This document shows, piece by piece, positions 1,845-29,830 of a stretch of DNA of 32,000 bases. Numbering within the stretch: position 1 is the first letter of the stretch; every line of letters starts with the position of its first letter. The position numbers and the translations under genes were made by a program. A model generated the notes under the pieces. That model was not told the DNA's origin. It saw only the letters and a list, made by a program, of their open reading frames with translations, and did not search any database. This DNA comes from Coriobacteriia bacterium (GTDB lineage Bacteria > Actinomycetota > Coriobacteriia > WRKU01 > WQUG01), in NCBI GenBank assembly GCA_009778715.1, contig WRFR01000001.1:111428-143427 (forward strand). The letters are read 5' to 3'.

Positions 1845-2008
1845 TCGTTTGACTTTTCTATCCGTGCGCCACAGTATGGGCAATAGAGCCAATCGTGGTT
1901 GTCGATATTAAGCACTTTATCGGACACAATGCCATACTTAATAACGGCACATTGATGGCTGCGCACTGCGCTCTCAAAGTTTTTGAGTACTCGTTCTACT
2001 TCAGTCAT
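1841..2008 (-). CDS. Small 55-aa protein with an HxC...CxxC pattern (possible zinc ribbon), function unknown
   Basis: Hand translation gives MTEVERVLKNFESAVRSHQCAVIKYGIVSDKVLNIDNHDWLYCPYCGARIEKSNE. Its ATG overlaps the MTase stop (ATGA) and its stop overlaps the topoisomerase GTG, so it fits the coupled gene train. It is below the track length cutoff. Confidence 0.45.
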   Translation of the reverse strand: MTEVERVLKNFESAVRSHQCAVIKYGIVSDKVLNIDNHDWLYCPYCGARIEKSNE

Positions 2009-2913
2009 TGCTCTATCCTTTCAATTTCTGCGATCGCCTCAAAGATCGGATATATCTGCTGAGGAACAATCGCATTGCCTAAGCATCTAAGTCTGTCCAC
2101 CCGAGCGGAAACCCCATGAGCCATTCGACCCACGTCGGGTTCAGCTGCCCACCGATTTGATCGTTGAGATTGCGGGTCTTGGAAGGATCCTCGAAGCGAT
2201 CTCTTCGGCCCGTCCTGTAGTCCCTGGCCTGAGGCGTGGCAAACATCTTCACATAGGCTGGAAGGCATGGTGAGTGCCTTCTCATGTCGCTTGCTCCTCC
2301 GCTGCGCTTGCAGTCCGAGGCACTCGGCGTCGGAAACAGCTTGACTGCTCCGCTCAGTGTCAGTATCGGCTTGCTGTGATCGCCCCCGCTGTATTGATAG
2401 TCGCCGCGTTCGTTTGAGCGAGGCGTTGGCCACAATAAAACAGCGCTGGCGTTCTTGCGGGGCCGAGACACTGCAAGCTGGAAGTACAAATGCCCGAGCT
2501 TCGTAGTCAGCGGCTTCCAGGTCAGATAACGAGCGATCGAGGCCCATCTTGACGAAGCGAGCAACATTTTCTCCAATGACCCAATCGGGCCTGAGTTCCT
2601 GGATAACTCTAAACATTTCTGGCCAGAGGTAGCGGTCATCATCGAAGCCTCTACGCTTCCCGGCGCTACTGAAAGGTTGGCAAGGAAAGCCCCCACTGAT
2701 AACGGTAGCTGTGTGTAAGCCTGTTGCTTCATAGTAAGTCTCTTTCGTAAGTGTTCGGATGTCTCCGAAGTTCGGAACATCCGGCCAGTGTTTGGCATGG
2801 ACGCGACTGACATAGTCGTCAGTGTCGCAAGAACCGACATTTACAAAGCCAGCCCACTCAGCGGCCATATCAGCTCCGCCGATGCCAGAGAATAGTGAGA
2901 GGTGCGTTAACAT
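2005..2913 (-). CDS. DNA (cytosine-5)-methyltransferase, phage/ICE type, orphan
   Basis: Motif I is LFSGIGG, motif IV is GGFPCQPFS, motif VI is GENV and motif VIII is APQERQRCFIV. The C-terminus reads EPDVGRMAHGVSARVDRLRCLGNAIVPQ (motifs IX/X). The stretch between VIII and IX is low-complexity and R/S/Q-rich. Confidence 0.9.
   Translation of the reverse strand: MLTHLSLFSGIGGADMAAEWAGFVNVGSCDTDDYVSRVHAKHWPDVPNFGDIRTLTKETYYEATGLHTATVISGGFPCQPFSSAGKRRGFDDDRYLWPEMFRVIQELRPDWVIGENVARFVKMGLDRSLSDLEAADYEARAFVLPACSVSAPQERQRCFIVANASLKRTRRLSIQRGRSQQADTDTERSSQAVSDAECLGLQAQRRSKRHEKALTMPSSLCEDVCHASGQGLQDGPKRSLRGSFQDPQSQRSNRWAAEPDVGRMAHGVSARVDRLRCLGNAIVPQQIYPIFEAIAEIERIEQ
2079..2642 (-). CDS. Candidate overlapping ORF in an alternative frame of the C5-MTase gene (PTP-repeat / EWLMGFPxGWT protein). 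The frame is open up to 2840.
   Basis: The track lists a 253-aa ORF at 2079..2840, offset by one nt from the MTase frame. An internal ATGATG at 2642 is preceded by AGAGG 5 nt upstream. The translation reads KCLELSRNSGPIGSLEKMLL..SRWAS..LTWKP..LYFQLAVS..LLWPTP..LFPTPSASD..MFATPQARD..LNPTWVEWLMGFPLGWTDL. This looks like a real protein rather than off-frame noise. Expression is unproven. Confidence 0.35.
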   Translation of the reverse strand: MMTATSGQKCLELSRNSGPIGSLEKMLLASSRWASIARYLTWKPLTTKLGHLYFQLAVSRPRKNASAVLLWPTPRSNERGDYQYSGGDHSKPILTLSGAVKLFPTPSASDCKRSGGASDMRRHSPCLPAYVKMFATPQARDYRTGRRDRFEDPSKTRNLNDQIGGQLNPTWVEWLMGFPLGWTDLDA

Positions 2914-3461
2914 TTAGTACCACCATCCTCAAAATAAAGATGTTCTTGTCGCAACAATGGATCTATGCGTCCAGGTGATATCTCACAGCCATCAACACTA
3001 ATCGTTGAAGACAGCGATGGGCGAAACACCACAACAGCCGACGGAAACGGAGCGCTTGCTTTCGCATTGCTAAACTTAAGCCGACCGCGTATAAAGGTCA
3101 CTTGAGCATTCGGGTTGCCAAATATGTAGTCATGCCAATACCTCGTCTCAGTGCGTGCTGGAATAAGCATCACAATAGTGGCCCCACTCTTTGACTCTTC
3201 CGCTGCCTTTGCTACCCACTTGTCTATCTGGCGACCATAAGGAGGGTTTACCCAGACAGGACCGTAGCCGGTCCATGGCAACGCCAGCGCGTCTTTTTCC
3301 TCGTCAAAGTACACCGGGCACTTATGGTTTTCAGCAGAGGCTGCCGCATCAAGCCTGAAGTGATAGATCTCGTCAAGCGCGTTAAAGAAATCCTGGGGAG
3401 TTTCCCACTCATTGGAGTTCGATGACATGTACACACTTTTATTAATCATCAGCGGCCACAC
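2907..3461 (-). CDS. DNA N6-adenine methyltransferase, phage Dam family, orphan
   Basis: The sequence contains NEWETPQDFFNALDEIYHFRLDAAAS and the catalytic NPPY (VWVNPPYGRQ). The GTG at 3461 follows GGAGGG and overlaps the upstream stop (TAGTG). Alternative ATG starts lie at 3449 and 3428. Confidence 0.85.
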   Translation of the reverse strand: MWPLMINKSVYMSSNSNEWETPQDFFNALDEIYHFRLDAAASAENHKCPVYFDEEKDALALPWTGYGPVWVNPPYGRQIDKWVAKAAEESKSGATIVMLIPARTETRYWHDYIFGNPNAQVTFIRGRLKFSNAKASAPFPSAVVVFRPSLSSTISVDGCEISPGRIDPLLRQEHLYFEDGGTKC

Positions 3462-4429
3462 TACCCTCCGAGGATGTTTTTAGCTAGAGATCCCGCGCCA
3501 GCGATAACGGCGATATCGGCGACAAAGATACTGAGCATCTTAAGTACCGGCAAGATTAGCGTTGTGTTTTGGATCGCAGAGCCAACATCAACAGTAAGGC
3601 CGCCAGACCAGGCAAGCGCCGGGAGCAAACACAGCGCCAAAATGGCTATCGCAAACGAAAGAATAAGCGAGGAGAAATATGTCACAAAGTTTTTCGTTTG
3701 TGGGCGCGTTGTCTCAGATGCGTAGAGCGCCATAGGGATTGATCCAAACGCGGCGCAGAAGTACAGCTTGATAAACCGCACGACAGAGGTGACATAGACC
3801 ACGCAAAAGCCAATTATGACAGCGACCGCCATAATGATGGCATAGATTAAGCCGAGGGTCAGGGTAGAGGGGTCGGCGCCGGTAAAGTTGCCGGCGATGG
3901 TAAGCGTGTCATTGCTTGAGCCTACGATGCCCAGTATTCCTTGATACGTCTGAGTGCTGTAAGAGGCATGGTTAAAGGGATTAGTGTAGGTAAGATAATG
4001 GCCGTTTGGCATCTTACCCGTGATAATAACCTGCCCGATCGACCAGGCGAACTGGATAATGTAGGGCCAACAAAACACGAGGATGAGCAACACGAACCAA
4101 GTAAGGAAAAAGATAATAAGTTCGCTCTGCATCATATCTGGTTTTGATGTGTCGTAGAGCTGAGACTTTTGCTGCCATTCAGTAGCTTTAACGCCAAACA
4201 CGATAAGCAAGACGACTACCGCTACTGGCATCACAGCATACGTGTTGATTTTTATCATGAGATCCCAGATATTACCGTTTTGTCCCAGGGCTTGCTGAAG
4301 TGGCTGGGTGAGTATTGAGTTCTTGACAAGATCAGTAAGGACGGTTTGCGCCGTTTTGATATACCACGCGATCAGAGGCGTGATAAGATTGCTGAGGAAA
4401 TCCGTTATGCCCTGGGTGATAAACGACAT
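3461..4429 (-). CDS. Polytopic membrane protein, VirB6/TcpH-like T4SS channel component
   Basis: The 322-aa protein has multiple hydrophobic helices. It sits in the T4SS gene train, with an ATGA-type overlap to the upstream gene. The assignment rests on topology and position only. Confidence 0.6.
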   Translation of the reverse strand: MSFITQGITDFLSNLITPLIAWYIKTAQTVLTDLVKNSILTQPLQQALGQNGNIWDLMIKINTYAVMPVAVVVLLIVFGVKATEWQQKSQLYDTSKPDMMQSELIIFFLTWFVLLILVFCWPYIIQFAWSIGQVIITGKMPNGHYLTYTNPFNHASYSTQTYQGILGIVGSSNDTLTIAGNFTGADPSTLTLGLIYAIIMAVAVIIGFCVVYVTSVVRFIKLYFCAAFGSIPMALYASETTRPQTKNFVTYFSSLILSFAIAILALCLLPALAWSGGLTVDVGSAIQNTTLILPVLKMLSIFVADIAVIAGAGSLAKNILGG

Positions 4430-5331
4430 CAGAAATCGCCGCCATCGTCGGCAGTAAGCGTTTTAGTAGCCCTGTTATAGACAAGAGCAGCACGGATAGA
4501 TTTTGAGTTGAGCTGCCCAGTAAAAAGCGATACAAACTGGTTTTGCACTGGGTCATAGTGCACCTTGCCAGACCAGGTAACGTCGTCAAGAGTTGGATAA
4601 ATGGACTTGATATATGACGTAAGAGTAGATTTTGCCTTGGCGGCAGTGATACCGGGCATAAGCGCAAGATAGTTGATCGTGGCGGTCGCGGTAGGCTCGA
4701 AAGACTCTATCTGAAAAGCCTCAGCGGAATTAGGATCGACCAGCAGCGCACTATAGGTGGCAGAGGCGATAAACGCCTTGCTCGAAATGTGGTAGAACCC
4801 GTCACTCCCGTTTGTAATAGTAAGATTTACAGGGGCATACTGTCCGGCGAGCTCGATGGTCGCCTTAAGTTTTGCGTCACCTTGCGCTGAAAGCGTTTTC
4901 AAGGTGTAGTGGGTAGGAGGCAGCGCGTTATGCGTCTTCGTGTTCGTTTCAGTGAGCGTAGTAGGGGTAGCAGAGAGCTTGAAGGACTTGTCCTTAGATG
5001 TCCAAGCGGCTTTCGTAAGTATCGTCATCCACGACTGATAGAGCGCCGTCTGCTCTGTCTTATCGCCGACGCCTTCAATAATGACTGAGGCCGGAGGTGT
5101 GGTAGTCGAGTCCAGGCTATCGGAGGCCTTAGCGCGATCCTTCTGTGCAGAAACTGGCGTCGGCCGGCGCGGAGATGGGTGCAACGCTGTGCTCACAATC
5201 TTGAAGCTAACAAACGCGATCGTAACTATAACCAAAATGATGAGGAGTATCAGCACGATTCGATTCAGTATCGTGAGACGGCCCCACATTCTACCGAGTT
5301 TCCTTTTAAGCGGTTCCTTCATGGCAATCAT
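4429..5331 (-). CDS. Membrane-anchored conjugation protein (TcpC/VirB8-like by topology and position)
   Basis: The 300-aa protein has a single N-terminal TM (LTILNRIVLILLIILVIVTIAFVSF), followed by an S/T/P-rich linker and a soluble domain. It lies between the hydrolase and the VirB6-like gene. Confidence 0.55.
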   Translation of the reverse strand: MIAMKEPLKRKLGRMWGRLTILNRIVLILLIILVIVTIAFVSFKIVSTALHPSPRRPTPVSAQKDRAKASDSLDSTTTPPASVIIEGVGDKTEQTALYQSWMTILTKAAWTSKDKSFKLSATPTTLTETNTKTHNALPPTHYTLKTLSAQGDAKLKATIELAGQYAPVNLTITNGSDGFYHISSKAFIASATYSALLVDPNSAEAFQIESFEPTATATINYLALMPGITAAKAKSTLTSYIKSIYPTLDDVTWSGKVHYDPVQNQFVSLFTGQLNSKSIRAALVYNRATKTLTADDGGDF

Positions 5332-10029: not shown

Positions 10030-10375
10030 GGGAAATCTCCTCATTATAGAAAGGGCACAAATCCTCCCAGGAATTTGTAATCACATACGGACGGAATGGG
10101 CGGCGTTGAACATAGAAGTACACTTCAAGCCACTCAGAAAACGGCAAGTGATCGAAGTGGATGAAACCAGCGGCGATGATGCACGCGGCAACTACGATAA
10201 AAACTACCACCACAACAGGAACCGGCAGCTTGAGCACGCCAATACCGACCACATTAATGACAACTGACGCGCCAAGAGCCGTGAGAATGTACTTGACCTT
10301 ATCGCGACCAATTCCGAGGTTGGTGACAGTTTTCTCGTAGCTATAGGTGTCCTCATGTAGTGTAATCGGCTTCAT
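9869..10375 (-). CDS. PrgI/VirB3-like small membrane protein
   Basis: An N-terminal HEDTYSYEKTVTNLGIGRDKVKYIL is followed by two hydrophobic segments. The gene lies immediately upstream of VirB4. Its basic C-terminal tail of about 53 codons overlaps the VirB4 start in another frame. Confidence 0.65.
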   Translation of the reverse strand: MKPITLHEDTYSYEKTVTNLGIGRDKVKYILTALGASVVINVVGIGVLKLPVPVVVVVFIVVAACIIAAGFIHFDHLPFSEWLEVYFYVQRRPFRPYVITNSWEDLCPFYNEEISHEPQQKKKTKTPAIRTDHAAARTRSADISALKVRYGQATRGTKAQHEQRNDGA

Positions 10376-10734
10376 GAGAGCATACCCTTGCAGCCAGTGC
10401 CAATCCAGGCAGCAACAGCAACGACGATCAGTCCAGCGACGATACCGCCAGCATGATTAGCTTGCAGGGCCGCGCTCCCATGCTCCTCGTTAGTGGACAT
10501 GGCGTAATTTTTAACGTTAGTGGCCGTATACATAGCGCCAGGGACCGCAAAGATTGCAGCGATCAGTAGCAGTGTGCCGTTAAGTGTGCCGTCATAGCCG
10601 CCTGATACCGAGTTAAGGTAGTTCGCGGCATAGGCCGCGTGCGGTGCGATGAGTGTCGCGGCGCCAGCAAAAATAGCTGGTATCCACGTATACTGTTTTC
10701 TTACTTTACTTGCAAATGTGTTTAGGGTTTTCAT
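10372..10734 (-). CDS. VirB2/TrbC-like small secreted membrane protein (putative)
   Basis: The ATG at 10734 follows GGAAGGA and lies just after the T4CP stop at 10751. The signal-like N-terminus ends in AYA, and two hydrophobic helices are separated by a polar loop. The longer track ORF (to 10998) overlaps the T4CP gene and is not favoured. Confidence 0.5.
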   Translation of the reverse strand: MKTLNTFASKVRKQYTWIPAIFAGAATLIAPHAAYAANYLNSVSGGYDGTLNGTLLLIAAIFAVPGAMYTATNVKNYAMSTNEEHGSAALQANHAGGIVAGLIVVAVAAWIGTGCKGMLS

Positions 10735-10750
10735 ACTATATCCTTCCTGT

Positions 10751-12964
10751 TTAACTCTGAGGTCTTTTTTGCCGGTACTCTGTATGGATATATGAGACAT
10801 CGCTGCCATCCTTGCCGGATACATAAACGGTGCTACGAGCGCCAATGGGCCGCGCACGGGTTGAGTGTTGCCGCTCCTCGGCGCTATGATCTGGAAACTC
10901 CGGCACGTAGGTATCGAGGTATTCAGCTTTTTGTCCAATGCGCAAGCCGATATAATCGCCGTTTTTAATGCCAAAGCGGCGGCCGTGTCTGATGGCATAG
11001 GTGCGCTGGCCTATCTTGAAATGCACGCTAGGAAGCAACCAGGGCAGAAGCAGGGTAGGGCCGCCATACTGAATCTTTGGCCAAAGTGGGCGACGGTGCC
11101 CGGGATCCACATAACGGTAGAGCGAGTTATGCTCATTGATATAGCGCTTGTCGATCCTTGAGTTAAACGAGGATACCTGAATAAGTAAGTGAGAGCGTGG
11201 GATCCTGCCAACCTCAGAAGGATCTAATAAAGCGCGGGAATCTATTTGGTCGCGTGCCACATCGGTTGACTGTTTTTCTCCACCGCGCGACGTTACCGCA
11301 TCATGGGCAACAGTCAGCTCGCCGGCACGTTCGCTAAAGGCCTTATTGACCTCATAAGAGCCAGTACCTAAAGTGACCCAGACGCCGCAAAGCTCACGGA
11401 TTGTTTGCGCGGCCTCACGGCCGTAAAGCTCCTCAATTTTTACAAAAGAGAGCGTAGTGATCAGCCAATAGAAACCATAAGAACGCGACACCCCGATATT
11501 GTTATCGAGGTCAGGAACACGCCCAAAAGCCAAGAACTCATCGATCATAACTTCGATCAGCCCGGCCGCTTGACCACCATGGAAGTTATCAACCAGATAG
11601 ACTATACGGCTCATAAGCTGGTTTAAGAACATGCCATTTAAGAAATGGAACGTAGAGTTTCGTGCGTCAGACACAACGAAGATGACCGTTTTCTTACCCG
11701 GATCGAGCAACTTGTCGAAGTGAAACTCATCGTGGCTCAAAAGCGTCTGAATACGGTCGGCCGTAAAACGCGAGAAGGAGGCGTGAACCGATCCCACAAT
11801 AGAAGCTACCGTTTCAGGAGATCCGATATTATCCTTGAAGTGTTGCCACTGTCTTACGACCCAGTGTTGCGGTTGTGCTACCTCATAAGTGATAAAACCA
11901 GCCGCGTCAGCGTCTGGCACGCCAATGCCGACATAACGCTTGCCGGTCTTTACCTGGTTAATAAGCCGCTCAAAAAGTGAAATATCTTGACCGGGATCAG
12001 GTAGCAGCATATCGACAAGCTCCAAAAATGTTTTCATAGAACGCGATCCAGGGCAGAAGTAGTGCATATAGCCGCCGAGACATTGGATGATGATACGTTT
12101 TTGATCCTGAAAGAACTGCATATCGCCAGTAATATTTTTGTCAACATCTTTTGTGCCATTGACGATCATATCGGCGATCCGCATAATCTCGACCTGGGGA
12201 TCGAGCGTTGATTTATGCCCCGGGCTCAGACCTGCCTTATCATCAAGGCATGCCCACATATCCCAGCAGTTAGACTCCAGCGGATTATAGGTATTAAAGA
12301 CCTTAATATCAAAGCCCAGAAACTTGAACAGCCATCCAACGCGACGCAAAATATCGCCTTTGGTGTCCCCAATAACAAGCAGCTTCAAAGCCTTGTTTTT
12401 TACTGTGCGAAGGATCTGCGTCATGATGTAGGTTGACTTACCACCGCCAGGCTCAGCAGTCACAAACACAAAGGGGAAGCGGAAATACTTATGGCTTATG
12501 GTAGTAGCCGCAAGACCAAGCCGCGTCCACTTACCAAGCTGCCAATTATCTGAAGGATCATCGCGATCAGCAAAATTGCGCATGGCCCACCAGGACGCAA
12601 GGCGTGCGGAACCTTTTTCCTGGCCATACATTTTATTACGGCGAGAATGATCCCAGAAGTAGCGCCACAAGAAAGAAACCCAGATATAGACAACCAGGAC
12701 GCCAGCAAATATAAGACCGATATGGCTTAAGAACACCAAGCGCGGGAATGTTACCGCTTGATGAAACATTGCGCCAGTTATAAGGACAAATCCTTGCTTG
12801 TGTAGTATCACGTCAAAGAAGCGCCCTGCATAGATCGTGCGCGAAAATGCCACGAAAAGACCGACAACGAACAGTGTCGTTACTCCGAACAAAAACGGAT
12901 TGCGAATAAGCCCCCGCAGTAGCGGCCGCGCGTGCTTTGATGTCTGTGAAGGTACGGCAGTCAC
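10751..12964 (-). CDS. Type IV coupling protein (VirD4/TraG family)
   Basis: N-terminal TM helices are followed by a Walker A TAEPGGGKST and a Walker B-like VMIDEFLAFG. The protein is 737 aa. The GTG start directly abuts the upstream stop. Confidence 0.85.
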   Translation of the reverse strand: MTAVPSQTSKHARPLLRGLIRNPFLFGVTTLFVVGLFVAFSRTIYAGRFFDVILHKQGFVLITGAMFHQAVTFPRLVFLSHIGLIFAGVLVVYIWVSFLWRYFWDHSRRNKMYGQEKGSARLASWWAMRNFADRDDPSDNWQLGKWTRLGLAATTISHKYFRFPFVFVTAEPGGGKSTYIMTQILRTVKNKALKLLVIGDTKGDILRRVGWLFKFLGFDIKVFNTYNPLESNCWDMWACLDDKAGLSPGHKSTLDPQVEIMRIADMIVNGTKDVDKNITGDMQFFQDQKRIIIQCLGGYMHYFCPGSRSMKTFLELVDMLLPDPGQDISLFERLINQVKTGKRYVGIGVPDADAAGFITYEVAQPQHWVVRQWQHFKDNIGSPETVASIVGSVHASFSRFTADRIQTLLSHDEFHFDKLLDPGKKTVIFVVSDARNSTFHFLNGMFLNQLMSRIVYLVDNFHGGQAAGLIEVMIDEFLAFGRVPDLDNNIGVSRSYGFYWLITTLSFVKIEELYGREAAQTIRELCGVWVTLGTGSYEVNKAFSERAGELTVAHDAVTSRGGEKQSTDVARDQIDSRALLDPSEVGRIPRSHLLIQVSSFNSRIDKRYINEHNSLYRYVDPGHRRPLWPKIQYGGPTLLLPWLLPSVHFKIGQRTYAIRHGRRFGIKNGDYIGLRIGQKAEYLDTYVPEFPDHSAEERQHSTRARPIGARSTVYVSGKDGSDVSYIHTEYRQKRPQS

Positions 12965-14344
12965 CTACATCGCCACTTTTGGAGCCGGAGTATGCTTTGG
13001 GATGTTTATCGCAGGTTGTACTTTATGAGATGCGTCGGCAGCCTCGCGTAGCACTGCTTCTTTGCGCTCTTGATAGACCGTGTTTTTGATAGCAGCGTCT
13101 GAAGCGTGGAGTTTGTTATGGCTCAAATCATCTAACGCGCGGCGAAGCGCGTCCTGGTTAGAAGCCTGGCAGCGCAGCAGATACGACCCGTCTGGTTCCA
13201 AATGTGCATCAAAGACGATGCCACGCTCCATTAAAGCGACCGCGTAATCGTCAATATCAAACGCTACTACAGCGAGCGGGAAATCAAGGCGATCCGCGAT
13301 CTCGAAGGGTTTACGTTGGAGGGCATGTTGTCTGAAATGGGTAGCAGAGTTCTTAAGATCTTGCTGCTGGCGTATATAGGCCACACGCTCAGCTGCGAAC
13401 TTTTCATCTAGCACCTGCGCTGTGATCGTATGCAAGCTTGCGTCCTCTCCAGTAGCGGCAAGTACCTGCACGGTCCCCGAATCACCCAGTCGGCGCGCTT
13501 CAAGCTGAAGCCCTGCGTCCGTGCCCCGTTTCATGACCTCGGCAGCCGCGGCGCTATCCAGGACAAAGTACGGACGATCGAGAGCGTAGGTGTAAGACAC
13601 TTCTGGCACATTATCAGTGATTGACTCTACAACCGACTCTACATAGGGCCGCAGATCCTCGCTGAAGAACACGTCAACAGCATCTTGTCCGGGAACCTCA
13701 TAAAAGTCGAAGTCCTCAAGTCGCGGAAGCGCGTCGGTAGGTTCAAGACCAAGGTCGGCATAAGCCTGGGCGATATTGCTCTGAGCAGAAGCAGTCGCAT
13801 CGTAGGCGTTTTGTGCCCGGTCGCGTGACTCTTCATAAGCGCTACCAGCAAGAACGATATCGGTTTCATCAGCGCTCGTGATACGACCATCGGTTACAGC
13901 CTTAGTCGTTAAGCTACGATCAAGATGCTCTGGATCAAGAGCAAGACCATACTTCGCTACCTGAGAATTAAAACGATTTAAAGCGGCATTTTGTGCACTG
14001 CTGCGATCACGTGCGGCCGCGTCCAAATCGACCTGTTGTTCACGCAATGTCGCAACATCATTAAGCCGCTTTTTAAAGACCTCGCAATCGGCGGTAGCAA
14101 GGGTGATCCTGCACTGATCTTGTACCCAGGTATTACCCCGGACTTCCTCTAGGCGTGCTGGTAGATCACGTTTTTGCGCGTCAAGTTGCGCTTGCAATTC
14201 TTGACCCCAGACAGCGGCGCCCGCTTGGCGTTCAGCGGTACCTGTTTTAACCCGTGATGCTACCTTGCGCCCAAGACCTCGCAACGCCTCGGTTGAATAC
14301 CTAAAAAGCCATTCAACGACTTGATCTTCTGCATCAGCTGGCAT
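12965..14344 (-). CDS. Acidic soluble protein of unknown function, translationally abutted to the coupling protein
   Basis: The 459-aa ORF has no TM segment and no catalytic motif that I recognise. It has a coiled-coil-like N-terminal half and two similar alpha/beta-looking modules in the C-terminal half. Confidence 0.8.
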   Translation of the reverse strand: MPADAEDQVVEWLFRYSTEALRGLGRKVASRVKTGTAERQAGAAVWGQELQAQLDAQKRDLPARLEEVRGNTWVQDQCRITLATADCEVFKKRLNDVATLREQQVDLDAAARDRSSAQNAALNRFNSQVAKYGLALDPEHLDRSLTTKAVTDGRITSADETDIVLAGSAYEESRDRAQNAYDATASAQSNIAQAYADLGLEPTDALPRLEDFDFYEVPGQDAVDVFFSEDLRPYVESVVESITDNVPEVSYTYALDRPYFVLDSAAAAEVMKRGTDAGLQLEARRLGDSGTVQVLAATGEDASLHTITAQVLDEKFAAERVAYIRQQQDLKNSATHFRQHALQRKPFEIADRLDFPLAVVAFDIDDYAVALMERGIVFDAHLEPDGSYLLRCQASNQDALRRALDDLSHNKLHASDAAIKNTVYQERKEAVLREAADASHKVQPAINIPKHTPAPKVAM

Positions 14345-14551: not shown

Positions 14552-14962
14552 CTAAAATGGAATATCTTCAGTCAAGACCTCGACTGACGGTGCATCTTGG
14601 CTGGGCGGCTCATAAGATGTGCTGGCTTTGCCGTCACGCGCTGACATAAACTCGACATCATCAGCCACGATCTCGACCTTGCTACGCTTATCACCTTCTG
14701 ATGTCTGCCACGAGCTCCAACGCAAGCGACCGGACACCGCGACCTTCATACCCTTGTGCAAGTAACGCGAGAGACCTTCGCCGCGCGCACCCCAAACCAG
14801 GACATCGAAGAAGTTCGGAACGTCTTCCCATTGATCGGTTTTCACGTTCTTCTTACGATCATTGACCGCGATACCGATTTGTAGCACCGTACTGGTGGCG
14901 GCCTGGCGCAGTTCCGGATCCCGCGTGAGATTCCCTGTTACAAATACTCGATTGATACTCAT
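14552..14962 (-). CDS. ssb: Single-stranded DNA-binding protein
   Basis: The sequence starts MSINRVFVTGNLTRDPELR and has an OB fold. The C-terminal acidic tip ends in DIPF. The ATG at 14962 follows GAGGAAGGAG. The track start at 15046 is rejected. Confidence 0.92.
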   Translation of the reverse strand: MSINRVFVTGNLTRDPELRQAATSTVLQIGIAVNDRKKNVKTDQWEDVPNFFDVLVWGARGEGLSRYLHKGMKVAVSGRLRWSSWQTSEGDKRSKVEIVADDVEFMSARDGKASTSYEPPSQDAPSVEVLTEDIPF

Positions 14963-15067: not shown

Positions 15068-16777
15068 CTACAAATGAGCTTTCAGCGTGGGTTTTTGTGC
15101 GGCCATACCTTCAAAAATGTTTGCTGGAGTTTCGCTTTGTTTTGCGGTCTCATGGTCCTGCTCGGCCTGGGCCGCACCGAGACGAGCAGCCAGTACCGGC
15201 TGCTGGCTTTCAGCGGTAGTGGGGGAGTTGATAAGATCGAGACCAAGGGTCGTCTCATCAGTTATCATGCCGGTAGTGATAACGCCAAAAAGATCGGTAT
15301 TGCGAAAATCAGCTCCGCGACAATCTGCTCCAGCAAAGCTTGTAGGCCTGGCCCCGTTACGGTCAGGATGATTGTTGAAGTGCGCAAGCTGAAAATTCGC
15401 ACCTCTAAGATCAGCTCCGGAAAAATCAGCACCTAAGCACTGGGCGCTGATGGCGCATATATTGTGGCAGTCAGCATCGTGGAGATCTGCATTGAAAAAC
15501 TGCATACCAATGCAATTAGTGTCAGACAGATCAGCGCGAGCGCCTTCTTGTTCTGAAGTACTAAGCCACAAGTGATGAGCTCTGAGAATTTCATTAAACT
15601 CATCATCGTGTTGCTGAACTTTTAGGATCCGCATATCGCCGCTCCTTCTGATTGATGGTTCGCGGTCCTGTAAGTTTCTGATGCCAGTAGCGACTTCACT
15701 TTGTTTTGCAGCGTCATGGTCTTGCTCGGCCCGAACTGCACCGAGACGCGCGGACAGTTCTGGGCGCTGGGTTTCAGCAGGCTTGGCGCTAAGCGTCTTA
15801 TCAATACGCTCTATGAAATCCTGGGCAGCTTTCTGAATGGTCGTAAGCGACTGTTGGAGTTGCTTCAAATCCTTATCTTCTGCCCACCCGGCGATGTATC
15901 CGAAACTGTAATCAGATGTATCAATACCTAAATACCCGGAAACAATATAGGCAACGCTTTCGGCCTCAAGCTCCTTAGCCGATTCACTGAGATCATTGGA
16001 CAGATCAGCATGAAGCGTGGCGTGGGTCATTTCATGAATAAGTGTCTTGATTGTCTGTTCTTGCGACATATCACTTCGAACAACAAGCTGGCCGGTGTTC
16101 AGGTTTTGCAAAGCGTTGATGCGAGGTGCCAGGAGAACAAAGTAACCGTTCGCGCCATTATTAAGGTAGGCAAAATCATCTTCTGTACCGAAGTCCACAG
16201 GATAGGGAGAAATTTCTACTAAGGTGTCGATAAGCCTGTCATAACCTGCGACGGCGCCGGTGAGCTCCGTGGCAAGATAGGCTTCTTTGGGTAAAGGTTG
16301 TCCTGATGTTTGTGAAACATCAAAGACCGACACCGGAACATAACTCATCCAGGAAAGCTTTGTTTCATACTTTCCATCCGGGCGTTGTGTGACTTTCTTT
16401 GCTGCATCCTCACTACTTAGATCCTCTGACTTCATCACATCTTTAATCGCTTGATCTTTTGTCACGTAAAGATAAGTTGACGTTCGTTTCGCTGGCGCGA
16501 GGATCCGGATACCATGCTCACCTTTATTGACCATGCGCTTATGCTCATTTTTCCAGGTGTTAAATCCTGCGATGTACTCAGCGTCAGGACGTTGTAGCAT
16601 TATAAGAATAATATTGCGATGAGAGTACTGGTGAAAGCGGGCATGGAATTTGAGATACTTCTCATAGCGTCCACCGTCGGCAAAAATATCTTTTGTGCCA
16701 GATTCTAACTGAGCAAAGAGATCCTTGATCTCAGCGGCGCGCTTATCATCGCGTGTATGTTGAGGAACTGTAGCCAT
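15068..16777 (-). CDS. ardC: ArdC-like anti-restriction protein: an N-terminal ssDNA-binding domain plus a zincin HExxH protease, fused to a C-terminal pentapeptide-repeat domain
   Basis: The ArdC-N signature is YSHRNIILIMLQRPDAEYIAGFNTWK..VNKGEHGIRILAP. The metalloprotease signature is LIHEMTHATLH..EAESVAYIV. The C-terminus carries about 14 A(D/N)LXX pentapeptides (ADLSDTNCIGMQFFNADLHDADCHN..ADFSGADLRGANFQL..CRGADFRNTDL). Confidence 0.85.
   Translation of the reverse strand: MATVPQHTRDDKRAAEIKDLFAQLESGTKDIFADGGRYEKYLKFHARFHQYSHRNIILIMLQRPDAEYIAGFNTWKNEHKRMVNKGEHGIRILAPAKRTSTYLYVTKDQAIKDVMKSEDLSSEDAAKKVTQRPDGKYETKLSWMSYVPVSVFDVSQTSGQPLPKEAYLATELTGAVAGYDRLIDTLVEISPYPVDFGTEDDFAYLNNGANGYFVLLAPRINALQNLNTGQLVVRSDMSQEQTIKTLIHEMTHATLHADLSNDLSESAKELEAESVAYIVSGYLGIDTSDYSFGYIAGWAEDKDLKQLQQSLTTIQKAAQDFIERIDKTLSAKPAETQRPELSARLGAVRAEQDHDAAKQSEVATGIRNLQDREPSIRRSGDMRILKVQQHDDEFNEILRAHHLWLSTSEQEGARADLSDTNCIGMQFFNADLHDADCHNICAISAQCLGADFSGADLRGANFQLAHFNNHPDRNGARPTSFAGADCRGADFRNTDLFGVITTGMITDETTLGLDLINSPTTAESQQPVLAARLGAAQAEQDHETAKQSETPANIFEGMAAQKPTLKAHL
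15131..15216. repeat. Direct repeat copy 2, flanking the pentapeptide-repeat module (partner at 15695-15780)
   Basis: An ungapped hand alignment of 86 nt gives 68 identical positions. The two copies encode ARLGAAQAEQDHETAKQSE and ARLGAVRAEQDHDAAKQSE. Confidence 0.8.
15695..15780. repeat. Direct repeat copy 1, flanking the pentapeptide-repeat module (partner at 15131-15216)
   Basis: Same alignment as for the partner copy. Confidence 0.8.
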
Positions 16778-17074: not shown

Positions 17075-18121
17075 TCAGTCCTTCCAAATTAGTTGGCACA
17101 TAAACTCGCCATAGTCGTTGCTTATGAAATGTTTCACAAAACCACCGAGTGTTTTGGCTGGACACACGTCAAGATATGTCGTAAGCTTTTCCGGTAAAAT
17201 CTGCCAACCAAGACGCCTGGCGAGATGAGAAATATATGAAATTATCCATCCGAGTTTTGCGTCAGTATCGGGGAGATTTGAGGTAAGGTCGTTACTGGTA
17301 ATGTACTTGCGCAGCAACCGCACAACTTCTTTGCCTTGCTCGTCGTCAACAACGGCAGGGCGTATCATGGCCACGAAGTCGTTTGTGTATCTCTTTTCGT
17401 TTTGTTGTGAAACCGCTCTTTTGCTCTTTTCTGAGGGTCGCACCAAAGCACCTTCTTGGGTACTAGAGGTAAAGTGCTCTTTACCATATAAGTACTCTTT
17501 ATTAGTAAGGGGTTCAGGATCTGAACACCCGGTGTTCAGGATCTGAACACCCCCCTCAGAAACGGGCAGGTCAGCAGGGGTGTTCAGGATCTGAACACCC
17601 CCCTCCAGACATTTGTTCGTATCGGGATAATCTGTAGTACCTATCTCTAGATCAGTAACAGCCTCAACACATTCCGGCACGTAATTAAACAGCGCATTGA
17701 TAGGGTCTACGAGCACCCAGTAGTTAGTGCCGCCATCCGGATTTTGGCGTGTCTGGGGGATCCGTTCGTAGTCAATTAAGCCAACCGTCTTAAGCCGAGT
17801 TACAGCTTCTGAAGCCGCACCTTTAGAGATCCCGAATTTTGTAAGTCGTGATGTTGAACCGGTATAAGAACCGGACGTGGTGCCTTCTGTTAGATCGGGC
17901 CGGGAATAGCCGTAGATAACAGCATAGACAGTCAACTCTGAAGGCTTGAGATGATAAATACTACGAAGCGACTTGTAAGTACACCAGACCGATTTATCAT
18001 CACGGGTCTCAAAGCGATCACGAGTCATCCAGGTTTCGGTTTGCCAATAGTCACGCTGATTAAAGACCGTCGATATAAGTAGCTGTTGACGATCAAGCCC
18101 TGTGCTTGCCAGACCAGACAT
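17075..18121 (-). CDS. Winged-HTH DNA-binding protein, putative replication/transfer initiator of the element
   Basis: The N-terminal half reads LKPSELTVYAVIYGYSRPD..GSYTGSTSRLTKFGISKGAASEAVTRLKTVGLIDYERI (wHTH-like). It is the first gene of the train and contains palindromic DNA repeats encoded as EGGVQILNT x2. Function is inferred. Confidence 0.5.
   Translation of the reverse strand: MSGLASTGLDRQQLLISTVFNQRDYWQTETWMTRDRFETRDDKSVWCTYKSLRSIYHLKPSELTVYAVIYGYSRPDLTEGTTSGSYTGSTSRLTKFGISKGAASEAVTRLKTVGLIDYERIPQTRQNPDGGTNYWVLVDPINALFNYVPECVEAVTDLEIGTTDYPDTNKCLEGGVQILNTPADLPVSEGGVQILNTGCSDPEPLTNKEYLYGKEHFTSSTQEGALVRPSEKSKRAVSQQNEKRYTNDFVAMIRPAVVDDEQGKEVVRLLRKYITSNDLTSNLPDTDAKLGWIISYISHLARRLGWQILPEKLTTYLDVCPAKTLGGFVKHFISNDYGEFMCQLIWKD
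17509..17605. repeat. Three copies of a 21-bp palindrome GGTGTTCAG-GAT-CTGAACACC inside the initiator-like gene (candidate iterons, operator or oriT)
   Basis: The copies lie at 17509-17530 (one mismatch), 17531-17557 and 17579-17605. The last two share 27 identical nt. Each centre contains GATC. Confidence 0.85.
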
Positions 18122-29650: not shown

Positions 29651-29830
29651 GCGCCCAGTCCGCTGGCCCCTATTCGGGATCTGAGGGACCAGCCATATTG
29701 CTCCTCATCAAACCTATTCCTGCAGTGTAGATCCTCCTTTAACGTTTTTGCTGCTTATGTTATAGCATGTATGTTAGGAGAAGAAGAGTTCTTTGCGCGA
29801 GAATCCCTCGTTTTTAGAGGAGGAGGATAT

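Follow-up and report, generated by a model that had tools for sequence, protein, structure and literature searches.

Polyvalent proteins are a class in which an ArdC-N header and a zincin MPTase precede effector or LPD domains of variable kind (Iyer et al., 2017; PMC5512222, in whose main text the word "pentapeptide-repeat" is absent). Polyvalent ArdC proteins are regarded as multi-tool kits deployed by conjugative elements on cell entry, and their gain of modules has so far been deduced only from domain shuffling. The ArdC of the IncW plasmids R388 and pSa (PDB 6i89 and 6sna) has a two-domain fold with the HExxH zincin motif, and R388 ArdC exerts anti-restriction without need for its protease activity (PMC7213743). 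Here, a stretch of 32,000 nucleotides from a Coriobacteriia bacterium (hereafter the window) was analyzed, in which a 569-aa ORF (15068..16777, reverse strand, as are all of its features given below) reads, in this order, ArdC-N, zincin peptidase, a first tail copy (A), a pentapeptide-repeat protein (PRP) gene that was probably captured, a second tail copy (B) and the terminal tail. Like the polyvalent proteins, it thus starts with ArdC-N, continues with the MPTase, ends with a C-terminal module and is carried by a conjugative element; three conflict-related domains are found in the one polypeptide, where the class is defined by at least two on a phage or conjugative element. However, it is small for this class, with three globular domains including an added beta-helix, and its module, which keeps its own Shine-Dalgarno (SD) sequence and ATG, lies between the two copies of an 84-nt tail duplication. 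With a probability of roughly 0.6, we read it as a small polyvalent protein of the ArdC type that captured a mini-PRP gene in its tail and serves the establishment of an integrative conjugative element (ICE) of the Gram-positive kind. New in this work are the position of M382 at the start of the PRP, the phage PRPs as the nearest free-standing relatives examined, and the resemblance of the repeat to a tail motif.

The 569-aa protein is identical to the NCBI entry [quoted passage not shown], and its first 331 residues form an ArdC-N plus an intact HExxH...E zincin core, so that the ArdC architecture extends to about residue 330, as a sequence-only reading of this DNA had already recognized. The ArdC-N ssDNA-binding domain (aa 1-167, 16277..16777) was found by Pfam (ArdcN, PF08401, aa 19-102, 31.9 bits for a cut-off of 22.6) and by Foldseek, and was modelled by AF2 with a pLDDT mostly above 90. 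The zincin-like metallopeptidase domain (aa 168-331, 15785..16276) matched Peptidase_M78 (aa 226-277, 23.2 bits, cut-off 22) and, weakly, MPTase-PolyVal (18.1 bits, under the cut-off of 27.5). Both the HExxH motif and the downstream Glu of the zincin fold are present, as HEMTH (aa 248-252, 16022-16036) and EAES (aa 271-274, 15956-15967). The best solved-structure match of the predicted core in Foldseek was R388 ArdC 6i89 (E 2e-7, more exactly 2.2e-7, probability 1.0), with a TM-score of 0.52 on the target over 299 alignment columns. The fold is therefore that of the R388 and pSa proteins, whereas identity to them is 17%, a match that phmmer against PDB misses, about 240 residues are added at the C-terminus, and the host element is of Gram-positive type.

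When ArdC was used as query against 1.84 billion representatives, 1324 cluster representatives were retrieved at E<=1e-30, all with at most 52% identity and in proteins of 277-2182 aa. Within the matched stretch, the core reaches at most 52% identity to other proteins, and when the alignment spans the whole core, identity is about 48% or lower. Nearly all alignments stop at query aa 322-376, mostly at about 328-340, beyond which the family members carry partners such as LPD25, LPD16, YodL, RadC or PRP domains. The core hence belongs to a very large conjugative-element family with highly variable extra domains. The fusion architecture of the 569-aa protein itself remained a singleton when proteins were clustered at 90% and at 50%.

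The C-terminal module opens with a lead-in (capping) helix, DDEFNEILRAHHLWLS (aa 391-406, 15560..15607; AF2 block-mean pLDDT 82-95), which agrees with the alignment consensus "LxxHxxW...GxRADL". It is followed by a predicted four-coil right-handed quadrilateral beta-helix (aa 413-506, 15260..15541), in line with Pfam, AF2 and Foldseek, and by an acidic linker (aa 507-521, 15215..15259; pLDDT <65). Eleven consecutive pentapeptide units run from aa 413, a 13-residue loop (aa 468-480, 15338-15376) then interrupts the beta-helix, and about five further units end near aa 505. The module had been noticed from the letters alone with a count of about 14 pentapeptides; its existence held, and the count becomes about 16 units in four coils. 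Pfam Pentapeptide (PF00805, cut-off 20.2) matched aa 430-469 of the full protein (E 4.9e-10, 39.2 bits) and, with E 1.3e-11 and 44.3 bits, the 188-aa product that could start inside the fusion. Modelled alone, the module reached a pLDDT of about 90-96 with a strand at each fifth residue, and the top 32 PDB matches in Foldseek were all PRPs or designed PRP solenoids, headed by Np275 (2j8i_A, TMt 0.77). These models support the insert being a true pentapeptide-repeat beta-helix of the right-handed quadrilateral kind, as had been foreseen. In the full-length AF2 model the PRP part is unfolded (pLDDT about 30), probably owing to a poor mixed alignment, and the PRP was read only from the module-alone model. 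The beta-helix is acidic in composition, with a pI of 4.6 and 13 Asp/Glu for 6 Lys/Arg over 98 aa.

The module is bracketed by a direct repeat of 84 nt with 80% identity, at 15131-15214 and 15695-15778 (spacing 564 nt), close to the 86 nt and 79% first proposed. The insert between the copies measures 480 nt (160 aa). The copies encode AETQRPELSARLGAVRAEQDHDAAKQSE and AESQQPVLAARLGAAQAEQDHETAKQSE. Copy A (aa 334-361, 15695..15778) is predicted as a helix adjoining the core (AF2 helix 339-371, block-mean pLDDT 74-87), and copy B (aa 522-549, 15131..15214) as a helix that would be part of the natural C-terminal tail. Homology between the copies ends sharply at either edge: 20 codons follow copy A up to an internal ATG, and 20 codons follow copy B up to the stop (last 20 codons TPANIFEGMAAQKPTLKAHL plus TAG, 15068..15130), these two segments being unrelated sequences. 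When the 50-aa segment of each copy (the repeat plus the next 20 residues) was searched by tblastn against the whole window, each retrieved its partner (E 3.5e-10 and 8e-11), and no third copy was found in the window. The copies differ by 8 changed residues and 5 purely synonymous codons. A degenerate DNA pattern for ARLGA..AEQDH gave 0 matches in GTDB genomes, and its single metagenome-contig match lies out of frame in a recombinase-like ORF and was dismissed as chance. The repeat sequence thus appears to be confined to this element.

According to the family alignments, ArdC-like proteins keep an anchor at their extreme C-terminus, [ST][IVLM]xxx[LMIF]xxx[KRQ] (approximately KKPS[IV]xxxLxxxK), present in 49% of C-termini vs 8% per 60 aa elsewhere. 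A first HMM, for which the last 48 aa of the homologs were taken as they stood, was contaminated by core sequence and missed the repeats; it was replaced by a model of the anchored motif. This model gave only two matches in the 569-aa protein, which are the two repeat copies: copy B reached 2.1 bits, where 1000 shuffles had their 99th percentile at 0.7 bits and their best score at 4.1, and copy A scored -3.2 bits, which taken alone is within noise. Of 120 long family members, 75 have the motif at their C-terminus and none has it beside the core. Among 121 long family members, only the present protein has a clear second tail copy beside the core. This is illustrated by the self-similarity between the post-core region and the C-terminus, with z=19.9 here and 5.6 and 4.6 for the next two proteins, both YodL fusions. 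The repeat thus seems to bear a weak resemblance to this C-terminal motif of ArdC-like proteins. The earlier expectation that a single copy forms the natural C-terminus of homologs survives only as this weak motif resemblance, public data holding no close relatives. The locus thereby points to a conserved tail motif at the C-terminus of the ArdC family, of which no earlier description was found. The motif was also considered as a signal common to other proteins of such elements; this was rejected, given that 356 six-frame ORFs (window, L004 and L005) yielded one internal match, in a relaxase, and no C-terminal one.

Between copy A and the module, a 20-codon linker (15635..15694) contains the SD sequence GAAGGAG (15648-15642); after a spacer of 7 nt comes an in-frame ATG (15634-15632; M382), from which a 188-aa product could start. 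These signals are present exactly as the sequence-only reading had reported them. M382 is likely to be the original start of a captured PRP gene. Indeed, M382 lies 22 aa upstream of the conserved lead-in Trp (W404), which in 39 of 55 PRP relatives stands 14-20 aa from their own N-terminus. Within 25.9 kb of coding sequence, the arrangement AGGAG-N5-10-ATG was counted at just eight separate sites, about five of which we read as real gene starts, and the same SD core precedes the start of the neighboring ssb gene (AGGAG five nt before the ATG). Codon usage differs along the ORF as well: AGA/AGG make up 6 of the 12 Arg codons of the insert vs 1 of the 17 that core and copy A have together (Fisher p=0.011). 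As a separate observation, three of the seven AGA/AGG codons of the whole ORF fall within the 20-codon linker.

Free-standing relatives of the module are found among phages. PHROGs returned phrog_7713 (E 2e-12), a structure search retrieved phage PRPs at E down to 6e-9, and the best viral structure matches include the "repeat five residue protein" of Eggerthella phage PMBT5, the host of which is one of the Coriobacteriia. The three free-standing PRP relatives that were examined each lie on a phage-like contig. These small phage PRPs (phrog_7713, Eggerthella phage PMBT5, Rheinheimera phage Barba13A) are like the module in size class, with a capping helix and a short beta-helix, and their N-terminus lines up with M382; they are, however, independent genes with only about 25-43% identity to it. 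With the C-terminal 243 aa as query, only generic PRPs were retrieved, at no more than 53% identity and over short stretches; none of the matches carried ArdC-N (PF08401) and none covered the repeat segments.

Fusions of ArdC with a PRP occur in 3 of 261 homologs. P0026 (505 aa) and P0056/P0237 (670/658 aa), from Firmicutes-type conjugative elements, likewise combine ArdC-N, a zincin domain and a C-terminal PRP, and have conjugative surroundings, with a relaxase and MobC, or YodL and TTRAP, nearby. However, their PRPs have no significant similarity to the present one (best blastp E 0.06), no duplication flanks their modules, and P0026 contains an extra middle region and P0056 an N-terminal extension. 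ArdC-PRP fusions are therefore rare and yet seem, from these comparisons, to have arisen independently, in at least two further lineages. The earlier remark that the combination is undescribed holds for the literature searched and fails for the sequence databases, where the two other independent lineages are found. Neither of these has an internal Met or an SD sequence at the module boundary, and a separate PRP product is hence no general feature of such fusions.

We infer, with good support, that the present protein was caught soon after a PRP gene had been captured in its tail. A free-standing mini-PRP gene of the phage or mobile-genetic-element (MGE) type, translation signals included, would have inserted in the C-terminal tail of a short ArdC of about 380 aa; the insertion would have duplicated 84 nt of the tail, leaving copy A beside the core and copy B near the C-terminus, the usual place of the family tail motif. 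Since no relative of the element is present in the databases, the state before insertion is deduced and not observed. The earlier image of a gene-in-gene scar is apt, because the embedded SD and ATG lie exactly where free-standing PRPs start, and the flanking repeats would be a duplication of the tail around the inserted gene. A whole small gene with ribosome-binding site and start codon inside a duplicated tail would offer a concrete model of module capture, in which the acquisition is still legible. As for function, the PRP might be a non-catalytic binding or decoy module, acting in the new recipient against a DNA-handling or defence protein of the host. It might be tethered to the incoming ssDNA via ArdC-N, be freed by the adjacent peptidase, or be made separately from M382; release by cleavage is weakened by the protease-independent anti-restriction of R388 ArdC. 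In a broader and unlikely version, the mini-PRPs of MGEs and phages would be an as yet unrecognized class of anti-defence decoys, mimicking nucleic acids or proteins, present here both as an ArdC-N-tethered form and as a free copy, and the tail would be a signal that must stay terminal, e.g., for type IV secretion transfer or partner binding. Such an obligation would explain why the tail was duplicated when the module was captured and, if true, would provide a general mechanism for the growth of polyvalent proteins. The link of small phage-type PRPs to an establishment and anti-defence toolkit makes them candidates for anti-defence screens.

Other origins have to be weighed against this capture. 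In a scenario to which we give a limited chance, two neighbors were fused by stop loss or a small indel, namely an ardC gene (core plus tail) and an independent PRP gene that had its SD within the 3' end of ardC, the second tail copy having a separate cause. This agrees with an SD and ATG kept at the native N-terminus of the PRP, with the distance of exactly 20 codons from each repeat copy to ATG or stop, and with a TAA in the +1 frame 9 nt past the ATG, as in an overlapping stop/start. However, it leaves unexplained the 80% identical ArdC tail copy at the C-terminus of the PRP, no other protein of this or two other elements ends in that tail, and the two 20-codon segments are unrelated. Moreover, no PRP gene was found beside ardC around the two closest ArdC homologs (P0203 and P0197, both in different element types). 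It is decidedly improbable that the protein is a recent neutral or mildly harmful chimera, whose PRP insert serves no purpose within ArdC and is decaying. Its singleton architecture would fit such a fate, as would repeats that differ mostly in amino acids and the fact that direct repeats of this kind are removable by recombination. Nevertheless, the reading frame is intact over 1.7 kb and the beta-helix is modelled at high confidence. Besides, with repeats only 80% identical, the fusion has outlasted substantial divergence without stop or frameshift, and the emergence of ArdC-PRP fusions at least two more times argues for a useful combination. If the PRP were inert, the locus would be no more than a neat case of gene fusion. 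As for an assembly or sequencing artefact of the fusion or its repeats, its chance is close to nil. The genome is metagenome-assembled and all copies are 100% identical, perhaps representing one population, but the reading frame is continuous and three different assemblies agree: the protein recurs, with DNA that is 100% identical, in a 143-kb NCBI genome contig, an ENA k141 contig (66.8 kb) and a Logan contig (two samples). In addition, an assembler could neither have collapsed nor have duplicated repeats that are only 80% identical.

The module had also been labelled as of the DNA-mimic type, which raises the question of whether the captured PRP is a topoisomerase-directed mimic like Qnr, MfpA, AlbG or McbG, protecting or modulating gyrase or topoisomerase while the element becomes established. 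We consider this very unlikely. QnrB1, MfpA, AlbG and McbG do share with the module the right-handed quadrilateral beta-helix and the acidic composition, the first three are among its structural matches, and one face loop recalls the Qnr loops. Moreover, the independent ArdC-PRP gene of L004 comes immediately after a gene for a type IA topoisomerase. Such topoisomerase genes are, however, common in these elements, and type IA topoisomerases are not known to be targeted by PRPs. Qnr and MfpA form dimeric rods of 8-10 coils, whereas the module, with four coils (about 20 A), is about half that length, no Qnr-type C-terminal dimerization helix is evident in it, and Np275 and the phage mini-PRPs match it best. 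The named family models failed by a wide margin (QnrA 18.6 bits vs a cut-off of 450, HetL 21.4 vs 260, Alr5209 20.7 vs 125), and besides NCBIfam QnrA no model of a topoisomerase-protecting PRP matched at E<=0.01. The label therefore lacks support. Neither ArdA nor Ocr was represented, by family or by structure, among the Pfam, NCBIfam, PHROGs, PDB and BFVD results, and in one study McbG and QnrB did not inhibit BREX (PMC7261183).

Capture of the mini-PRP gene would have taken place in what is probably a Gram-positive-type integrative conjugative element. The window also encodes a coupling protein, a VirB4-like ATPase, a PrgI-like protein, an NlpC/P60 lysin, a single-stranded DNA-binding protein (SSB) and two methyltransferases. 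No relaxase was found among the scanned proteins of the window and no transfer origin was identified in it, and Rfam and tRNA scans of the window gave no matches. The adjacent 459-aa protein is an orphan that matches only itself, and no sister element was found in public data. The ArdC-PRP gene is the second ORF inward of the chromosome junction and is immediately followed by ssb (136 aa, 14552..14962, reverse strand; Pfam SSB E 8e-28), for which the ENA contig gives an identical gene call. This placement would be compatible with the leading region mentioned in the sequence-only reading, though it does not prove it. A frameshift in the C5 methyltransferase gene (2005-2913) was considered and rejected: the overlapping 253-aa ORF has no Pfam match, and the 302-aa ORF has its own C-terminal GNAIVP.

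The ORF at 15068-16777 (minus strand) encodes a 569-aa protein joining an ArdC core to a pentapeptide-repeat protein (PRP) module, and three assemblies contain an identical protein, encoded by 100% identical DNA. Because these assemblies agree and the two copies of the direct repeat flanking the module differ from each other at 17 of 84 positions, an assembly artefact as the source of the fusion or of the repeats, a concern raised by the sequence-only reading, is very unlikely. Taking the structural and evolutionary descriptions jointly, the protein is considered to be a polyvalent ArdC protein that has recently taken up a PRP module (probability about 0.85).

Pfam placed ArdcN at aa 19-102 (over threshold), an IrrE/M78-type zincin at aa 226-277 (barely over threshold), a weak MPTase-PolyVal match and pentapeptide repeats at aa 430-469 (E 4.9e-10). 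The HEMTH motif lies at aa 248-252, followed by a candidate third ligand in EAES (aa 271-274). In the full-length AF2 model, the core (aa 1-331) has pLDDT values mostly above 90, and its best PDB match is R388 ArdC (6i89; E 2e-7, 299 columns, 17% identity). These data bear out the earlier view that the protein is a canonical ArdC up to about residue 330. When 1.84 billion cluster representatives were scanned exhaustively with HMMER, 1324 relatives were found at E<=1e-30, with at most 52% identity over the matched stretch and at most about 48% where the entire core aligns. Nearly all family alignments end at query residues 322-376, most of them around 328-340, while the matching proteins range from 277 to 2182 aa and carry partner domains including LPD25, LPD16, YodL and RadC. 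The family belongs in the polyvalent-protein class, whose members have ArdC-N as their N-terminal header and the MPTase as their hub (Iyer et al. 2017; PMC5512222).

The insert was modeled with AF2 on aa 377-569, using an alignment of 76 PRP relatives. The beta-helix expected from the sequence-only reading was obtained: a capping helix (aa 390-406) precedes about 16 pentapeptides arranged in four coils, with one strand per five residues. Most of aa 397-506 reached a pLDDT of about 90-96, with less confidence in a 13-residue loop (aa 468-480). Foldseek searches with this model returned PRPs and nothing else. The top PDB match was Np275, a short Nostoc PRP (TM-score 0.77 on target), whereas QnrB1, MfpA and AlbG matched structurally but ranked lower. 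Viral models, phage PRPs of 150-215 aa, matched better than PDB entries, and among the best was a PRP of Eggerthella phage PMBT5, which infects a member of the Coriobacteriia. Besides, the 188-aa product that could start within the insert falls in phrog_7713 (PHROGs, E 2e-12), and three free-standing sequence relatives that were examined sit in phage-like contigs (L006, L008 and L009). In L008, the relative adjoins a gene with a weak Mom-family match; L009 also has terminase and portal genes. The pentapeptide module is acidic (pI 4.6; 13 acidic versus 6 basic residues), and its scores with the NCBIfam models for Qnr, HetL and Alr5209 are only 18-21 bits, where cut-offs of 125-450 apply. Judged by these comparisons, the insert is a genuine PRP and nothing groups it with topoisomerase-directed DNA mimics. 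The label "DNA-mimic type" initially given to it was therefore not retained.

As had been described, GAAGGAG lies 7 nt ahead of an in-frame ATG at 15634 (M382), from which the 188-aa product could be made. Across 25.9 kb of coding sequence, eight distinct sites show the AGGAG-N5-10-ATG pattern, about five of which read as real gene starts (VirB4, HAD, MetK, the hydrolase at 29771 and probably others), and the neighboring ssb has the same AGGAG core. The lead-in W404 is aligned to a Trp in 55 of the 76 PRP relatives, lying 14-20 residues from their own N-terminus in 39 of these 55; M382 is 22 residues upstream of W404. Moreover, AGA/AGG make up half of the Arg codons in the insert versus 1/17 in the core (p=0.011). 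Read most simply, the putative SD and ATG are translation signals that a formerly separate PRP gene brought with it. A Met at the equivalent module boundary is absent in both other ArdC-PRP lineages.

The direct repeat, previously given as 86 nt and about 79% identical, is real and in the same places, and was measured as 84 nt with 80% identity (15131-15214 and 15695-15778, 564 nt apart). It has two copies only in the 32-kb window, its homology stops abruptly on both sides, and pattern scans beyond the element found nothing. Many homologs end in a common motif, roughly KKPS[IV]xxxLxxxK, followed by about 20 residues. Its regex anchor, [ST][IVLM]xxx[LMIF]xxx[KRQ], matches 49% of C-terminal 60-mers in the family versus 8% per 60 aa elsewhere. 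Among the 120 long homologs (at least 150 residues after the core), the motif lies within 45 residues of the C-terminus in 75 and next to the core in none. An HMM built from 116 motif windows, the fusion protein being left out, matched the 569-aa protein only twice, exactly at both repeat copies and in the same register. Copy B (aa 522-549) scored 2.1 bits, above the 99th percentile of 1000 shuffles (0.7 bits; maximum 4.1), and copy A (aa 334-361) -3.2 bits, which alone is not significant. The evidence that the repeat and the tail motif are the same is weak, and suggestive at most. This motif is kept at the extreme end whatever domains intervene, and no description of it was found in the literature searched. 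Comparison of each post-core segment with its own C-terminus gave the highest value for the fusion protein (z=19.9), followed by two ArdC-YodL fusions, P0004 and P0015 (z 4.6-5.6). In these two, post-core KPLTVEEHTKNSYEASAERS resembles the C-terminal tail QPLTMAERMAAAKEASKERS, which may be an older, decayed case of tail duplication around a captured module.

Most likely, the repeat is the family's own tail, duplicated when a PRP gene inserted into it; such an insertion, with duplication of 84 nt, would account for the sharply bounded duplication. Fusion of adjacent ardC and PRP genes through a lost stop codon fits as well, and accounts for both the retained SD and the exactly 20 codons that follow each repeat copy, but it leaves the ArdC tail on the PRP unexplained. 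The gene-in-gene scar proposed earlier is supported by the bounded duplication and the embedded SD and ATG, without being the sole fit. A sister element able to decide between insertion and fusion does not exist in databases, where the ArdC core has no close relative. The fusion locus shows module capture with unusual clarity, and it gives a lead on the mini-PRPs of phages and mobile genetic elements.

PRP domains were found in 3 of 261 family members examined (P0026, P0056 and P0237), also in conjugative contexts. P0056 and P0237 are related to each other, and none of the three PRPs has detectable similarity to the insert. By these comparisons, the ArdC-PRP combination has had three or more separate origins, a recurrence that favors function over accident. 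The sequence-only reading knew of no described combination of this kind in a leading region; indeed, the word "pentapeptide" is absent from the main text of PMC5512222, yet two more lineages exist in sequence data. In L004 (4319-8328), an unrelated conjugative element with an independent fusion, the P0056 gene comes immediately after the gene of a 659-aa type IA topoisomerase, with a MobC and relaxase pair close by; its place beside a topoisomerase gene may be chance or may hint at function.

PRPs serve as binding scaffolds without catalytic activity, and some of them mimic DNA towards gyrase. Tentatively, and with more doubt than confidence, the module may be a decoy or adaptor directed against a host protein of DNA handling or defence while the element establishes; it could be tethered to ssDNA through ArdC-N, and perhaps also made as a free 21-kDa protein. 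R388 ArdC is active in the recipient against type I restriction, its protease activity being dispensable (PMC7213743). Polyvalent proteins, by one proposal, accompany the incoming DNA or act on it, and serve to deliver effector modules (PMC5512222). BREX was not inhibited by McbG or QnrB in one test (PMC7261183). Overall, the original observation (ORF, domains, repeats, SD and ATG) was confirmed, and its interpretation supported in part, the DNA-mimic label being among the points not supported.

The setting, in what NCBI lists as a Coriobacteriia metagenome-assembled genome, is a Gram-positive-type integrative conjugative element. On the minus strand, a 348-aa protein with a weak winged-helix match (MarR-type; 17075-18121) precedes the fusion gene, which is directly followed by ssb, an orphan 459-aa protein (12965-14344), a coupling protein, a PrgI-like protein, a VirB4-like ATPase, a lysozyme/NlpC-P60 lysin, two unknown proteins and, last, side-by-side Dam-like N6-adenine and C5-cytosine methyltransferase genes (2005-3461). 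Chromosomal housekeeping genes (HAD hydrolase, Na/H exchanger, PriA, MetK, GltX, MetG) extend from about 18258 onward. No relaxase or endonuclease family was matched among the proteins scanned in the window, within which no transfer origin was identified. The methyltransferase pair without an endonuclease match is consistent with self-methylation being a second way in which the element counters restriction. The 459-aa protein matches itself alone among 5.8 billion sequences, and the proteins at 12965-14344, 17075-18121, 3461-5331 and 10372-10998 have no Pfam, NCBIfam or PHROGs match over curated threshold; from such searches, the whole element seems to be without sequenced close relatives. Beyond the methyltransferase genes lies a stretch of about 2 kb (1-2000) in which neither strand has an ORF of at least 110 aa and scans gave no Rfam family or tRNA; it may represent non-coding or degraded DNA of the element. 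Finally, three copies of a 20-22-nt palindrome, GGTGTTCAGGATCTGAACACC, lie at 17509-17605 within the ORF of the 348-aa winged-helix-like protein, where they code for the repeated peptide EGGVQILNT; two of them are 100% identical over 27 nt. They look like candidate iterons or a protein-binding site (replication or transfer origin) within a coding region.
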